Source: Nanopusillaceae archaeon (GTDB lineage: Archaea; Nanobdellota; Nanobdellia; Nanobdellales; Nanobdellaceae). Taken from it: a stretch of DNA of 7,095 nt. This document shows positions 2,791 through 7,095 of the stretch, one piece after another. The position numbers were made by a program, and so were the translations under genes. The stretch spans positions 1-7,095 of the forward strand of contig JAWBIX010000019.1 of assembly GCA_038833255.1 (NCBI GenBank), read 5' to 3'. The notes beneath the pieces are model-generated. The model ran no database searches and was not told where the DNA came from. It saw nothing but the letters and a program-made list of their open reading frames with translations. Position 1 is the first letter of the stretch. The number at the start of each line of letters is the position of its first letter.

Positions 2791-3372
2791 TTAAGCACGA
2801 ACAAACTTTATTTTCCTAAAATCAAGATTTTCTATTAAAAATCCTATTGATCCTTTTTCTAAAAAATCTTCATAATCCCAAACATATTTAATATCTTTTT
2901 TAGTAAAAATTGAATAAAAGCTTAAAATGTTAGTATAATGAGTTACAATTACTACATTTTTATATTTCAAATTTTTTAAATATTTTTCTATAAACTTTTT
3001 TGTTCTTTTGAAAACAGAAATTACGCTTTCTCCTAGAAAAGGTTTATATTCGCAATAATGCGAGTTTTTACTCTTAAATTCTAAAAACTTTTCTGCCTTT
3101 TCTCCAAAAAACTTATAAATACCTTCGTTTCTTTCTTTTAGCAAACTGGTTTTTATTATTTTTGTATTGAATTTGATAGAAATTGCTTTGGCTAAGAATA
3201 AGCATCTTTTAGTTGGAGAAGAAAAAATTATATCTATGTTTTTAAAATGCTTTCTTAACAATGAAAATATTCTAAAAATTTGCTCGTATGTTTCTTTTAA
3301 TGGTTTGTCTTTTCTTTTATCCCAAATTGGATGTCTAAGAATTATAATGTATGATGCCATAATATTTATCAT
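2791..3372 (-). CDS. Histidine phosphatase superfamily protein (phosphoglycerate-mutase-like / CobC-like phosphatase).
   Basis: The N-terminal catalytic motif is IIILRHP (RH present, with P where the usual RHG has G). Other family motifs are SSPTKRCLFLAKAI (SSP..R...TA-like), LLKERNEGIY..G, GESV and VVIVTHYTNI (the second catalytic His). The true start may be the second ATG at 3360 (MASYIIILRHP), which would place RH within about 10 residues of the N-terminus, as is usual for the family. Confidence 0.8.
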   Translation of the reverse strand: MINIMASYIIILRHPIWDKRKDKPLKETYEQIFRIFSLLRKHFKNIDIIFSSPTKRCLFLAKAISIKFNTKIIKTSLLKERNEGIYKFFGEKAEKFLEFKSKNSHYCEYKPFLGESVISVFKRTKKFIEKYLKNLKYKNVVIVTHYTNILSFYSIFTKKDIKYVWDYEDFLEKGSIGFLIENLDFRKIKFVRA

Positions 3373-3449: not shown

Positions 3450-4583
3450 TTACAAAAGTTCTACTATCATAAGATCAGACGAAAAAGCATAGCTACTTTT
3501 TAATAACTCTCTTAGATAACGTAACTCATCTTCATTAATTATTTGTCTTGGATCTTGGCGATGTTTGATAACAAATTTATTTCCTTTTTTTATTATCTGA
3601 GGTATAGGATGTAATATTGGGTATAAGTTAAACCCTTTATAGTACTTATGTATTACAAAACCGTTTTCGAAGAGTTTTCGCATATATTTATAATAATTTT
3701 CTGAATAGATGATAGGATTTAATGAGATATAACCTCTAATTCCAGCAATTTTTTTAATCATTTTTATTGCTGCGTCAAAAAAACATAAAAAGTCAGCATC
3801 AAATGAAAATATTTCCAATTTGTTTTTAAATCTTTTTGGAATTCTTGAGCATAGGTCAAAAACTTCTAGTTTGAAACTTTCATGATTACTAATAACTTTT
3901 TCTATCAAATATATTAGTTCTTCGTCTATATCAAAAACATATATCTTGTTTACTATTTTTGAAATTTTTTCAGTTGTTTCTTGCTTTTGTAGAACTTCAC
4001 TTTCAAGTTGAGAAATTAAAAGATAAAAACTAATGGATAGTAAATCATCATCTCCCAATATTCCTATAGTAGTGTCAAAAAGATATGAATTTGAATAGAT
4101 TATTTTTATTCTCTTTATAGAAGAAACATTAGTACAATAATGTTGTTCATATGCATGTTTCAGTTTGAAATTTCTAAAAAATTTATCTCTAATTTCAGAA
4201 AAATTACGAAGAATGTTTCTCCAGTTGATTACAGAAATTGATGGAAGAGGTAAAGAAAAATTAACTTGAATATCACTTGTTAAATTTTTACCTTCTTTTG
4301 AGAGTTTTATGAGATTGTTTTCTTCAAGAAACTTTAAAAATATAGAAAGAATTCGTGAAGGTATACAACTTTCCTTTAGAAGTTTTTTATAACTTTTGTA
4401 GTTGTAAACAATCCATAATAGGTTTTGAAATTTTAGAATAGAAGGAAAATATCTAAAGAGAAGATTTTTAACATCTCTTTTTGAGAGAATGCTATCTTTA
4501 TGAACTTCTAAAAATAAATTATAGGTGGTGGTTGAAGATAAAAAATTCTTATAAAGCCTTTCTATATCCCTTTTATATAGCAT
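3450..4583 (-). CDS. DUF43 / BpsA-like protein (branched-chain polyamine synthase family) with an N-terminal winged-helix-like region. It is a divergent member lacking the TDPP motif.
   Basis: This is a 377-aa ORF. It is collinear with my recollection of Thermococcus kodakarensis BpsA. YEQHYCT aligns with FDQAYVT. GILGDDDLLSISF (GDDD at nt 4044..4055) aligns with VLGDDDLTSVAL. IYVFDIDEELIYLIEKV aligns with IAVLDIDERLTKFIEKA. LEVFDLCSRIPKRF aligns with IFTFDLRKPLPDY. GYISLN aligns with GYFGIT. ENGFVIHKYYKGFNLY aligns with EFGVVITDIIRNFNEY. Residues 70-98 (IPSRILSIFLKFLEENNLIKLSKEGK) look like a wHTH recognition helix plus wing. Confidence 0.8.
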   Translation of the reverse strand: MLYKRDIERLYKNFLSSTTTYNLFLEVHKDSILSKRDVKNLLFRYFPSILKFQNLLWIVYNYKSYKKLLKESCIPSRILSIFLKFLEENNLIKLSKEGKNLTSDIQVNFSLPLPSISVINWRNILRNFSEIRDKFFRNFKLKHAYEQHYCTNVSSIKRIKIIYSNSYLFDTTIGILGDDDLLSISFYLLISQLESEVLQKQETTEKISKIVNKIYVFDIDEELIYLIEKVISNHESFKLEVFDLCSRIPKRFKNKLEIFSFDADFLCFFDAAIKMIKKIAGIRGYISLNPIIYSENYYKYMRKLFENGFVIHKYYKGFNLYPILHPIPQIIKKGNKFVIKHRQDPRQIINEDELRYLRELLKSSYAFSSDLMIVELL

Positions 4584-5521
4584 CCTAAGATTTCATATAT
4601 ATTTATTTTTTCATCTTCTGGGACTACGATTGAAGTATCATCACCAATTTCTACTTGTCTAACCTTTATTATTTCTGCATTTGGATTTATTTCTTTTAAT
4701 TCTTGCATTATTAGCTGTTCTTTTAGACTATTCTTAAATATATTTGCTTTATTTAAGAAAATTATATGTGAATTTCTGAGATTATATATTCCTGGATAAC
4801 TTATATAGTCCCAAGCTTCTCTTCCTAAATCAACGACAGTAATATATACATCTGGCTTTATTAGAGGCGGCTCTGTAGAACCTTTACATATTCCCCATAT
4901 TACTATTTCAGTTTTTGTATTGTTTAATGTAGTGTAATCAATTCCTACATATACTGGTATGTTTAATGATAGATATGGTTTAAATTCTGAAGATTCTATA
5001 ACAAATGGACTATTTTTTATATCTTCTTCGGTTTTTATTACTGAATGAGTAATAGAAGAATCAAATTTTCCATTAAATTCTGGATAAGTTGCAACTATTA
5101 ATGGAATATTCTTATTTTTAAAGTAAGTCGCATAAGTAAGAGTTACTGCAGATTTACCTGCTCCTTTAGTAGAGGTAGTAATAGCTATAACTGGTTTGTT
5201 TATTTTTTTCATCATTTTTTCATAGTTAGGGAATATTACTTCAAAATTTCCAAAAACCTTTACTATATCTTTTTGGGGAACATCGGCTAAAGAAAAAATT
5301 ATTCTTTCTATATTATCGCCTTTACTAATACTTGCTACTACTTCTGAGAAATCATTAAAAGTTCTTTCTATTCTAAAAGGTAGTTTATCCTTTATATTAT
5401 CAACGTTTCTATTTTTATTTCTTACTATCCATACTCTCCTTTCTTCTAGGCTGTTGTAGGAGGTATGAAAGATATATGCTCTTTCTAACTCTCCTATAAA
5501 GATTTCGTTTGATCTACTCAT
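4562..5521 (-). CDS. P-loop NTPase, SIMIBI-class, COG2403 / cyclic-2,3-diphosphoglycerate-synthetase-like. A short, divergent member of the family.
   Basis: This is a 319-aa ORF. The P-loop is KPVIAITTSTKGAGKSAVT (nt 5150..5176 encode TSTKGAGKS). Downstream blocks are collinear with the COG2403 consensus as I remember it. IPLIVATYPEFNGKF aligns with rvvvvRHPMPYGdl. VYVGIDYTTL aligns with vyaGVDYe.il. IVIWGICKGSTEPPLIKPDVYITVVD aligns with iilWDGGNNDfpf.kPDl.ivv.D. SYPGIYNLRNSHIIFLNKAN aligns with yyPGe.n.r.AD.vvINK. INPNAEIIK aligns with lNP.A.ii. Its TAG at 4562..4564 lies 22 nt inside the next gene. Confidence 0.65.
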   Translation of the reverse strand: MSRSNEIFIGELERAYIFHTSYNSLEERRVWIVRNKNRNVDNIKDKLPFRIERTFNDFSEVVASISKGDNIERIIFSLADVPQKDIVKVFGNFEVIFPNYEKMMKKINKPVIAITTSTKGAGKSAVTLTYATYFKNKNIPLIVATYPEFNGKFDSSITHSVIKTEEDIKNSPFVIESSEFKPYLSLNIPVYVGIDYTTLNNTKTEIVIWGICKGSTEPPLIKPDVYITVVDLGREAWDYISYPGIYNLRNSHIIFLNKANIFKNSLKEQLIMQELKEINPNAEIIKVRQVEIGDDTSIVVPEDEKINIYEILGCYIKGI

Positions 5522-5541
5522 AAATGATAAAAAACATTAAA

Positions 5542-5550
5542 GTATAAAAA
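5542..5550 (-). promoter_or_regulatory. TATA-like element (TTTTTATAC on the minus strand) about 25 nt upstream of the P-loop gene ATG.
   Basis: The 55-bp gap between the NTase stop (5577) and the ATG at 5521 reads, on the minus strand, ...gtaaaatttttatactttaatgttttttatcatttATG. The TATA-like core is centred about 25 nt from the ATG and there is no SD-like motif. This is consistent with a leaderless P-loop/BpsA-like bicistron. The evidence is weak because the background is AT-rich. Confidence 0.3.
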
Positions 5551-5576
5551 TTTTACTATTATTTTTTAATGAATTT

Positions 5577-6443
5577 TTAAATGTTGCATAAATTTAAGTT
5601 CGAAAAATAATAACTAGAAAAACATGTAAGATATTCTATAAGTCTTTTGTTAATTTTCGTATTTTCATATCCATATGATAACATCAAATTATATATTAGT
5701 TTTTCAAGAAAATTTTCAACTTCTCTTCTTGGATAGTTATCTCCTAATAAAAATTCTTTTTCAAATTTTTTAGATTGTTTAATTAAAACTAATTTAAGAA
5801 CTTTTTGAATAAATTTAATAATTCCTACATCATTTGATGAATAAACTCTATAAATAGGAATTTTTAGCAAAAATGAGTAAGACTTCTCAAGAATATAAGT
5901 ATCATAAAGATATTTTAGTATTTCTGAAGTTTTGTAGGGCTTAATAATCTCTCTTAACTCTGAAATAAATAAATCTTCTTTATTTATAACTTTTATTTTA
6001 TCTGTACAAGCAAAATCAAATTTATATCCAATTTTTTCTAAGAATGTATCGAATTTTGATAATGTTATATAGTTAATTCTTTTTGTTCCCAATTTAATTG
6101 ACAAATATGGGTAAATATACTCTTTATTTAATTTTTTGAGTTTTGAATAAATTAAGATATTATCATCCTCTAATCTAAATAAAAGTGGTGAAGTTTTTAG
6201 ATTTTCTTTTATAAGTTTTATTACATTTCTTTTATAATTGTTAATCTGTTCTTTCTCATCTACTTCAATATAAATATCAACATCTTTATTAAATCTTCTA
6301 TATTTTTTATCTACATAAGTATTAAAAGCAGTTCCACCAACAACTATAGCATTATATCCTCCTTCGTGAGATAAAATATAATAAACCGAATCAAAAAGTT
6401 TAAACAGTAATTTACCATATTCAATTTTCCAATTACTATCCAT
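5577..6443 (-). CDS. Nucleotidyltransferase-fold protein, AbiEii/DUF1814-like (Pol-beta superfamily minimal NTase).
   Basis: The NTase core is YNAIVVGGTAFNTYVDKKYRRFNKDVDIYIEVD. GG is at nt 6333..6338 and DVD at nt 6276..6284, giving the pattern hhGG.A.......R...DhDh seen in AbiEii-type toxins. The length (288-296 aa) and a C-terminal helical block EDLFISELREII......LKYLYDTYIL resemble the AbiEii motif-IV region (K..A...R....RDlyDl). The ORF track starts at the TTG at 6467. I prefer the ATG at 6443 (MDSNWKIEYG...) because a GAGGT Shine-Dalgarno-like motif sits 9 nt upstream of it. Confidence 0.6.
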   Translation of the reverse strand: MDSNWKIEYGKLLFKLFDSVYYILSHEGGYNAIVVGGTAFNTYVDKKYRRFNKDVDIYIEVDEKEQINNYKRNVIKLIKENLKTSPLLFRLEDDNILIYSKLKKLNKEYIYPYLSIKLGTKRINYITLSKFDTFLEKIGYKFDFACTDKIKVINKEDLFISELREIIKPYKTSEILKYLYDTYILEKSYSFLLKIPIYRVYSSNDVGIIKFIQKVLKLVLIKQSKKFEKEFLLGDNYPRREVENFLEKLIYNLMLSYGYENTKINKRLIEYLTCFSSYYFSNLNLCNI

Positions 6444-6452
6444 AAAAATATT

Positions 6453-6457
6453 ACCTC
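6453..6457 (-). promoter_or_regulatory. Shine-Dalgarno-like GAGGT, 9 nt upstream of the NTase ATG at 6443.
   Basis: The minus strand reads TAA(ArcTGT stop)agttttttgtcattcaGAGGTaatatttttATG. This suggests the NTase is translated from the same transcript as the ArcTGT gene rather than from its own leaderless mRNA. Confidence 0.35.
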
Positions 6458-6473
6458 TGAATGACAAAAAACT

Positions 6474-7095
6474 TTAAATGTAAACTTTTAATAAGTTCTT
6501 TCTGCTCTTAATTTTTAAAATATAACCCTTTGGTATTATTATTACTGCTTGCTTTATCTTTTTGTTTTCTAAGAATGAATTAATTTCGTTACTTAAATCT
6601 TCAAACACTTCTCTATCAAAATCATCGTTAATTTCGCTCTGGAAAAATGGATATGTATATCTTAAACCAAACTTAAAAATTCCAAAATATGGAGAATAGA
6701 AATAAACTTTGAAATCGCTATATTTTTTAGTAAACTTTTCTAAAGTTTTTTCATTATTTTTCCAAAGCAGATATGGAAACAAAAGAATTTTTTCATCAAC
6801 ATCTTTATTCATTTCTTTTAGCTTTTCTCTTGCAATCAAAACTTTTGGATTGTTTAAATCGAAGCTATCATACAAAAATATTGCTTTTTGAGATACTTTG
6901 TAAAAAGGTGTTAAATTTTTTAGAAAATCTTTAAAATCTTTGAATTGCTTAAAAGCTTTATAGAGTGCTGGATGAGAAAAAGATTTTTCTCTTAAATATT
7001 CCCATAATCTTCCTTCTATTATTGCTTGTTTTGTATTTTCCAACTCTTTTTTAATAACGTATAAATTATGAATTGCTAACAATCTTATTAACTCA
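6474..7095 (-). CDS. tgtA: Archaeosine tRNA-guanine transglycosylase (ArcTGT), C-terminal ~206 codons. The gene starts beyond the right window edge.
   Basis: The frame stays open upstream of the track's TTG 'start': nt 7083..7094 read E-L-I-R in frame, so the protein is ...ELIRLLAIHNLYVIKKELENTKQAIIEGRLWEYLREKSFSHPALYKAF... This is the characteristic end of the archaeal TGT catalytic domain (HNLY....I..aI.EGrLWE.v....r.HP.Ly). The C1-domain signature TYPFFQSEINDDF (nt 6618..6656) follows; compare Pyrococcus LTYPFAQSEAEDDF. The stop is TAA at 6474..6476. Confidence 0.85.
   Translation of the reverse strand, partial: ELIRLLAIHNLYVIKKELENTKQAIIEGRLWEYLREKSFSHPALYKAFKQFKDFKDFLKNLTPFYKVSQKAIFLYDSFDLNNPKVLIAREKLKEMNKDVDEKILLFPYLLWKNNEKTLEKFTKKYSDFKVYFYSPYFGIFKFGLRYTYPFFQSEINDDFDREVFEDLSNEINSFLENKKIKQAVIIIPKGYILKIKSRKNLLKVYI

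Follow-up and report, generated by a model that had tools for sequence, protein, structure and literature searches.

A 7,095-nt stretch of a Nanopusillaceae archaeon contig (JAWBIX010000019.1, assembly GCA_038833255.1; hereafter the window, meaning the whole stretch of DNA analysed) carries on its minus strand four genes, encoding a Pol-beta-type nucleotidyltransferase (NTase), a truncated P-loop protein of the cDPG-synthetase (cDPGS)/COG2403 type, a BpsA-family aminopropyltransferase-like protein and a histidine phosphatase. These four genes are a conserved, co-occurring unit in two distant lineages. We tentatively read them as a lineage-restricted, operon-like four-enzyme cluster that is built around the translationally coupled P-loop/BpsA-like pair and serves an aminopropyl-transfer pathway, not defence, and we give this reading a probability of about 40%. 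As they also stay together in the second lineage, the four genes probably form an undescribed small pathway, the core of which is probably a BpsA-family aminopropyltransferase dependent on decarboxylated S-adenosylmethionine (SAM; decarboxylated form, dcSAM).

Four genes recur together in two distant lineages

The window is strongly AT-rich (G+C content ~24% overall, local range 0.19–0.28), with five co-directional open reading frames (ORFs) on its minus strand and three more on its plus strand. Since stop codons are frequent in DNA of ~24% G+C, ORFs of 296, 319 and 377 amino acids are not chance occurrences. They correspond to the NTase (positions 5577–6467, minus strand; 296 residues from a TTG at 6467), the P-loop protein (4562–5521, minus strand) and the BpsA-like protein (3450–4583, minus strand), and the ORF coordinates agree exactly with the three minus-strand genes and the 22-nt overlap described in an earlier, sequence-only reading of this DNA. 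That reading took these three genes as the whole module. The three do recur together on a second contig, but a fourth co-directional member, encoding a His_Phos_1 histidine phosphatase (2791–3372, minus strand; 193 residues), had been missed. The remaining minus-strand ORF encodes the C-terminal part of ArcTGT (6474–7082; NCBIfam arcsn_tRNA_tgt, 7.7e-30) and is context only. Local G+C content is lowest in the NTase gene (0.19–0.22 at 5501–6250) and highest in the P-loop gene (0.27–0.28 at 4501–5500).

The second lineage is represented by a 3.5-kb JGI metagenome contig (L007) carrying P0002, the sole close relative of the short P-loop protein. Its genes encode, in order, an EVE-like protein, an NTase ortholog, a His_Phos_1 phosphatase, the short P-loop protein and the N terminus of a BpsA-like protein, which is cut by the contig end. 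The earlier suggestion that the genes form a conserved unit is borne out by this contig, on which all of them recur at 31–49% identity to their window counterparts (NTase, 31–33%; phosphatase, 49%; P-loop protein, 47–48%; BpsA-like N terminus, 38%), with the P-loop/BpsA-like overlap kept. The phosphatase gene is placed differently, lying between the NTase and P-loop genes in L007, and the gene upstream of the NTase differs as well: the window has ArcTGT there, whereas L007 has an EVE-like gene unrelated to TGT (positions 2–403; Pfam 0.0023, under the cutoff). EVE domains have a PUA-like fold and bind nucleic acids. On the basis of this unrelated upstream gene, TGT was rejected as a cluster member. 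One of two interpretations offered by the sequence-only reading was a tRNA/polyamine thermoadaptation neighbourhood linked to ArcTGT; the ArcTGT part of it fails because the adjacency is not conserved, and a polyamine or thermoadaptation role is plausible through the BpsA-like gene only.

Exact-sequence look-ups placed the window on ~20 near-identical contigs from metagenome-assembled genomes (MAGs), which carry the submitter labels Nanopusillaceae archaeon or Candidatus Aenigmatarchaeota (DPANN). In nearly all of ~15 sister assemblies none of the four genes is disrupted and their identity is 99.8% or higher, a stability that we count in favour of a four-enzyme cluster. Because the ~20 contigs represent one population, however, they are not independent evidence of conservation. 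The wider surroundings on the sister contigs are housekeeping genes, including those for RNR, ArcTGT, glutamate dehydrogenase and an aminopeptidase.

Searches for further copies found a very narrow distribution. Among 5.8 billion clusters, the short P-loop protein has one close relative (P0002), and an exhaustive phmmer search of 1.84 billion representative proteins with the NTase found, apart from the query, nothing but the L007 ortholog and a single spurious repeat protein; the NTase and the short P-loop protein are known only from these same two lineages. Word-indexed homology searches with the BpsA-like protein and the NTase recovered the query proteins only. No match was found in GTDB species-representative genomes, either with an alignment of the short P-loop protein or with a degenerate DNA pattern for GICKGSTEPPL. 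The same pattern found no match in viral contigs or in JGI metagenome contigs, the latter being a weak negative, as that collection lacks L007 itself. When metagenomes were scanned with the phosphatase alignment, all that came back were two unrelated bacterial loci of high G+C content, in which the phosphatase adjoins a membrane-protein gene (CobS-like by eye).

The overlapping P-loop and BpsA-like genes

The P-loop and BpsA-like genes overlap by 22 nt (4562–4583, minus strand), the P-loop stop codon lying at 4562–4564 and the BpsA-like ATG at 4583–4581. NCBI gene calls on sister contigs reproduce this overlap, and its counterpart in L007 is 35 nt. Conservation between the window and L007 begins at the first residue of the BpsA-like N terminus and is lacking in the C-terminal tail of the P-loop protein, which supports the start as annotated and also translational coupling. 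Fusion of the two proteins by a programmed frameshift was ruled out, since the frame offset differs between the window (+2) and L007 (+1).

The assignment of the downstream gene to DUF43/BpsA, first made from the sequence, was confirmed by profile and structure-database searches. The protein matches Pfam BpsA_C (PF01861; 1.4e-17, 64.2 bits against a cutoff of 27), although only profile positions 63–202 of 243 are covered, and it matches BpsA entries in the PDB (5xnc, 1.2e-7; 2qm3, 2e-6). PGAP names it 'bis-aminopropyl spermidine synthase family protein'. In overall length and two-domain layout it is like canonical BpsA (Tk-BpsA, 5xnc; Tt-BpsA, 6j27; PF1111, 2qm3). The GDDD motif, which in Tk-BpsA (G157–D160) positions the aminopropyl group of dcSAM and is indispensable for catalysis (PMC12979288), has its equivalent in GILGDDD (residues 174–180, GDDD being 177–180; 4044–4064, minus strand), aligned to the LGDDD of 5xnc, 2qm3 and 6j27. 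Four residues of BpsA, Asp225, Glu259, Tyr290 and Tyr316, activate the acceptor (PMC12979288). The equivalent of Asp225 is kept within FSFDAD (residues 259–264; 3792–3809, minus strand; alignment to 5xnc), as are that of Tyr290 (in GFNLY) and the ribose-binding strand VFDIDE (VxDxDE), both aligned to Tk-BpsA.

The claim that this protein has lost motifs normally invariant in its family thus largely falls away, the GDDD, Asp225 and Tyr290 equivalents being intact; what has changed is TDPP, whose prolines are replaced (FDAD). Also unlike canonical BpsA, the window protein has an insert of ~17 residues after GDDD. The same reading had ascribed to it a winged helix-turn-helix (wHTH). No profile or sequence search detected a helix-turn-helix. 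The N-terminal region so read belongs to the usual layout of BpsA proteins, alignments with 5xnc and 2qm3 beginning at residues 88–92 of both partners, and it is no sign of a regulator.

The P-loop protein (319 residues) has no significant Pfam family (best cobW, E = 0.12). Among PDB sequences it matches cDPG synthetase (9sxb, 5e-4), and it matches ~440-residue 'predicted GTPase' relatives at 1e-17 to 1e-12. Its AlphaFold (AF2) model, built on the alignment with these relatives, has a mean predicted local distance difference test (pLDDT) score of 68.5, with core residues 100–300 mostly at 80–90, and Foldseek comparison of this model with the PDB returned cDPGS (8oru/8ork, 1e-10), then LpxK and HypB. 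Both cDPGS and LpxK are small-molecule kinases. The proposed COG2403/cDPG-synthetase lineage therefore stands, with cDPGS and the long COG2403-type forms being the best match in structure as well as in sequence. The window protein has in common with them the kinase-like P-loop core, Walker A and the motif series KPD...TVxD..R...YPG...NK...NP.A. Walker A is intact (TKGAGKS, residues 118–124; 5150–5170, minus strand), with G120, G122, K123 and S124 invariant in short and long forms, and the family-invariant acidic residues D80, D167, E176, D195, D224 and D231 are kept. In the cDPGS substrate-binding site, K145 has a kept equivalent (K119) and R146 corresponds to Gly120; the N-terminal 100 residues show no cDPGS similarity (E45/K46 region) and have pLDDT <56. 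The window protein and P0002, at an overall identity of 48%, share without any difference a block of 16 residues, WGICKGSTEPPLIKPD, which indicates that the short P-loop protein is under purifying selection and not simply decaying.

The long forms have other neighbours. Carbamate-kinase-like AA_kinase genes were found in three of five contexts examined (L008, L011 and L026), and in one of these (L026) genes for OTCase and a class-III aminotransferase also adjoin the long-form gene, which hints at a role of the long 'predicted GTPase' family in carbamoyl-phosphate, arginine or polyamine catabolism. No BpsA, His_Phos or NTase gene lies beside the long form in any of the five. The translationally coupled pairing with a BpsA-like gene is accordingly absent from the five long-COG2403 neighbourhoods, those of canonical BpsA not having been surveyed. 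Neither the truncated P-loop form nor its coupling to a BpsA-like gene is found in PADLOC or the literature searched.

Several features weigh against the aminopropyl-transfer reading. For the P-loop protein, the loss of invariant motifs noted in the sequence-only reading holds. The protein has 319 residues against 440–460 in cDPGS and the long COG2403-type forms, and both short forms lack, or have in altered form, four features of the long ones (GAAGRDFHNFN, WDGGNND, NKxD and the C-terminal domain with EDGPTxTHG). In the window protein the N-terminal Gly-rich GAAGRDFHNFN motif is lost, as is the Asp of NKxD (NKAN). The Walker-B-like acid is missing too: the short-form signature IWGICKGSTEPP (4865–4900, minus strand) stands in place of the long-form LWDGGNND (LEGSGA in cDPGS), with a 2-residue insertion at this site (WGICKGSTEPP) unlike the long forms. 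The protein ends ~35 residues past the INPNAE motif and lacks the C-terminal subdomain (~120 residues), which in cDPGS contacts adenosine via T353 and E404. Given these lost motifs, the P-loop protein may be catalytically dead. Its gene is also frameshifted in two sister assemblies by independent 1-nt indels, near window position 5209 in L017 and near 5463 in L018 (A7 to A8, and a C lost from ACCTCC), which reflect either mistakes in assembly or a genuine loss of the gene's function in subpopulations.

The BpsA-like protein adds further points on this side. No Glu is aligned with Glu259, which falls opposite an Ile that is followed by a Glu at a distance of three residues, and the C-terminal 55 residues cannot be aligned to the region that in BpsA holds Tyr316 and the acidic carrier cluster. 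In BpsA this flexible C-terminal cluster (E339, D342–E345) carries the aminopropyl group (PMC12979288). A PDB search with the C-terminal 97 residues of the window protein gave no BpsA match and nothing relevant; a NEDEL stretch lies at residues 350–354, within the unalignable region. The ~30 kb of available context showed no gene for SAM decarboxylase and none for spermidine synthase. NTases of the AbiEii/DUF6036 type act more often on RNA or protein than on metabolites. Finally, there are two lineages only, and in compact DPANN genomes a neighbourhood conserved between two is thin evidence.

An alternative that we consider somewhat unlikely is that the pair alone is a unit, or that there is no unit at all: the BpsA-like protein would be an ordinary, fast-evolving branched-polyamine synthase of a thermophilic symbiont, the P-loop protein would be decaying, and the NTase and phosphatase would be bystanders held in place because a tiny genome rearranges at a low rate. 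Such a view accommodates the existing PGAP name, the intact GDDD and other core residues, the P-loop protein's lost family-invariant features and its frameshifts in two assemblies, the housekeeping surroundings and the restriction to two lineages. It sits less easily with four genes whose adjacency has outlasted a rearrangement within the cluster and a change of flank, with an overlap kept in both lineages and with the purifying selection indicated by the identical P-loop block. Against it, too, the NTase and the short P-loop protein have the same extremely narrow distribution, and the change of DPP to DAD, the insert after GDDD and the unalignable C terminus all depart from characterised BpsA.

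The nucleotidyltransferase, the phosphatase and the neighbouring genes

The NTase had been described as AbiEii-like with an intact GG...DVD core. The core is present: motif I of the Pol-beta NTases, VVGG (residues 42–45; 6333–6344, minus strand), with its GG at residues 44–45, is invariant in the window and L007 orthologs, as are K61, D62 and D64 of motif II, KDVD (residues 61–64; 6276–6287, minus strand), the DVD of which (residues 62–64) provides the metal-binding carboxylates. E100 is also conserved with L007. The family assignment is a marginal one, to DUF6036 and not to AbiEii. The window protein matches DUF6036 (PF19502) just above the cutoff (1.7e-5, 25.1 bits against a cutoff of 23.6) and has no match to AbiEii (PF08843) at E ≤ 1, and the L007 protein falls under the cutoff for both DUF6036 (6e-4, 20.1 bits) and AbiEii (0.021). 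No relative was found in a PDB profile search with both NTases, and a single-sequence AF2 model was unusable (pLDDT 36). The start of the gene is ambiguous: the TTG at 6467, 6 nt past the ArcTGT stop, gives a 296-residue protein that aligns with the L007 N terminus, and NCBI uses an ATG at 6443 (288 residues).

The phosphatase matches His_Phos_1 clearly (2e-15, 57.4 bits against a cutoff of 21.7), and its catalytic residues R13-H14, R56, E80/E83 and H145 are all invariant in the window and L007. In its profile and full set of catalytic residues it resembles branch 1 of the histidine phosphatases (CobC, PspA and dPGM-like). Unlike these, it lies under every NCBIfam equivalog cutoff and has unusual RHP/RHL and THYTN motifs instead of RHG and SHGG. 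From their conserved residues, the phosphatase and the NTase both look active.

The second interpretation offered by the sequence-only reading was a toxin–antitoxin or defence module, built on an AbiEii/MenT-like tRNA-targeting NTase with the P-loop protein and the presumed wHTH protein as sensor, regulator or antidote. With the fourth gene included, the phosphatase would join these two as regulators of the NTase, which might for instance be switched by phosphorylation in the way that MenT toxins are silenced when they auto-phosphorylate. The NTase does resemble AbiEii/MenT (DUF1814) and DUF6036 proteins in its Pol-beta motifs I and II and in a helical C-terminal half of similar size. K163 and D189 are conserved in both orthologs, at a spacing which, by eye, resembles that of the toxin-specific Lys and Asp of MenT3 and MenT4, and the GG, DxD, K163 and D189 together follow a DUF1814-like layout comparable with MenT3 D80/K189/D211 (by eye; PMC7450476). 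The protein is a near-orphan and the fastest-evolving of the four (31% identity), its L007 ortholog shows the weak AbiEii match (0.021), and MenT toxins are controlled by phosphorylation (PMC11375011). Defence-type genes are also present nearby, namely those for MazF/PemK, a PDC-S01 ATPase and cas1-cas4-cas2.

We nevertheless regard a toxin or defence role as very improbable. PADLOC gave no match at E ≤ 1 for the BpsA-like protein, the NTase or the phosphatase, including to AbiE or any other NTase or antitoxin model, and only a weak match of the P-loop protein to the generic AAA-ATPase PtuA (E = 3e-4, 18 bits). Unlike AbiEii/MenT, the window NTase lacks an AbiEii Pfam match and a cognate antitoxin gene: none lies upstream of or overlaps the NTase in the window, where the flanking gene is ArcTGT, or in L007, where it is EVE-like, and the gene that follows the NTase differs between the lineages. 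The coupled pair is the P-loop and BpsA-like genes, not the NTase and a partner. By the GICKGSTEPPL pattern search the cluster is absent from viral contigs, and the locus is fixed and near-identical across sister assemblies rather than variable, among housekeeping genes. With the evidence now at hand, the cluster should not be counted among defence systems. As the sequence-only reading had supposed, no described system combining these families appeared in PADLOC or in literature searches.

The plus strand of the window encodes an ATPase with AAA_14 and DUF4143 domains (351–1604), which has a PADLOC match to PDC-S01, a candidate defence family (3e-91), a 197-residue ORF without a family match (1815–2408) and a PemK/MazF toxin (2416–2757; Pfam 1.9e-16). 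The PemK/MazF gene starts 8 nt after the 197-residue ORF, and its product has 113 residues in the window, whereas most sister MAG contigs carry a gene call of only 76 residues. Gene and ORF together may form a toxin–antitoxin pair in which the partner is unusually large. Beyond the window (L001 503–2285 and 7303–7572), an acylphosphatase gene lies immediately upstream of ArcTGT in all sister contigs, and the cas1-cas4-cas2 adaptation genes lie ~7 kb past ArcTGT.

Some of these neighbours bear on a further alternative, a cassette for processing the ends of RNA (tRNA) or for modifying it. By analogy, a P-loop kinase, a phosphatase, an NTase and a SAM/dcSAM-dependent Rossmann transferase could work jointly on RNA ends or bases, carrying out Pnkp/Hen1-like repair or an aminopropyl-type tRNA modification. 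Bacterial Pnkp/Hen1 is an RNA repair system with a heal-and-seal logic. Four such activities would fit heal-and-seal plus modify, and DUF1814/AbiEii-like NTases act on tRNA 3′ ends (PMC7450476). The window copy lies between ArcTGT and the MazF/PemK RNase gene, and the upstream gene in L007 may encode a nucleic-acid-binding, PUA-like fold (weak EVE match, E = 0.0023). We find this alternative quite improbable, however, in view of a P-loop fold nearest to cDPGS, LpxK and HypB and not to polynucleotide kinases, a His_Phos_1 enzyme that is not the usual RNA-end phosphatase, and a GDDD motif specific for the dcSAM aminopropyl amine of polyamine synthesis (PMC12979288). The adjacency to ArcTGT is not conserved, and no tRNA gene or Rfam element was found within the window.

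A candidate aminopropyl-transfer pathway

In the aminopropyl-transfer pathway that we favour, the BpsA-family enzyme would bind decarboxylated SAM and move its aminopropyl group to an acceptor other than that of canonical BpsA. The truncated P-loop protein would be made in a fixed ratio with the BpsA-like protein and would bind a nucleoside triphosphate (NTP) via its intact Walker A. It might then phosphorylate or activate the acceptor in the manner of cDPGS and LpxK, whose targets are small phospho-metabolites; alternatively, it might serve as an NTP-gated partner subunit. The histidine phosphatase, with its complete catalytic set, would take phosphate off an intermediate or the product, and the Pol-beta-type NTase, with intact carboxylates, would nucleotidylate an intermediate or the same target. 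An order of kinase, nucleotidyltransferase, transferase and phosphatase is the usual logic of compatible-solute pathways. Whereas the gene structure, the overlap, the families, the state of the motifs and the co-occurrence in two lineages are shown by the sequences, we infer all of these catalytic steps as well as the nature of the substrate, which could be polyamine-like, another small molecule or RNA.

A more specific form of this proposal, which we hold to be unlikely, is that the P-loop and BpsA-like proteins are the two subunits of a new enzyme. With the help of the phosphatase and the NTase, this enzyme would produce an aminopropylated and/or phosphorylated thermoprotective metabolite of a kind not known so far, or introduce an aminopropyl-type tRNA modification, and the pathway would have been retained in genome-reduced hot-spring DPANN symbionts.

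If the cluster is instead a divergent BpsA with bystanders, our findings amount to an ordinary refinement of annotation. Activity of the BpsA-like protein with a P-loop partner would, if real, widen the known chemistry of branched-polyamine synthases and give the uncharacterised, cDPGS-related 'predicted GTPase' family its first functional clue. DPANN symbionts have shed most of their biosynthesis, so a four-enzyme cluster that two divergent lineages have kept whole probably matters to them.

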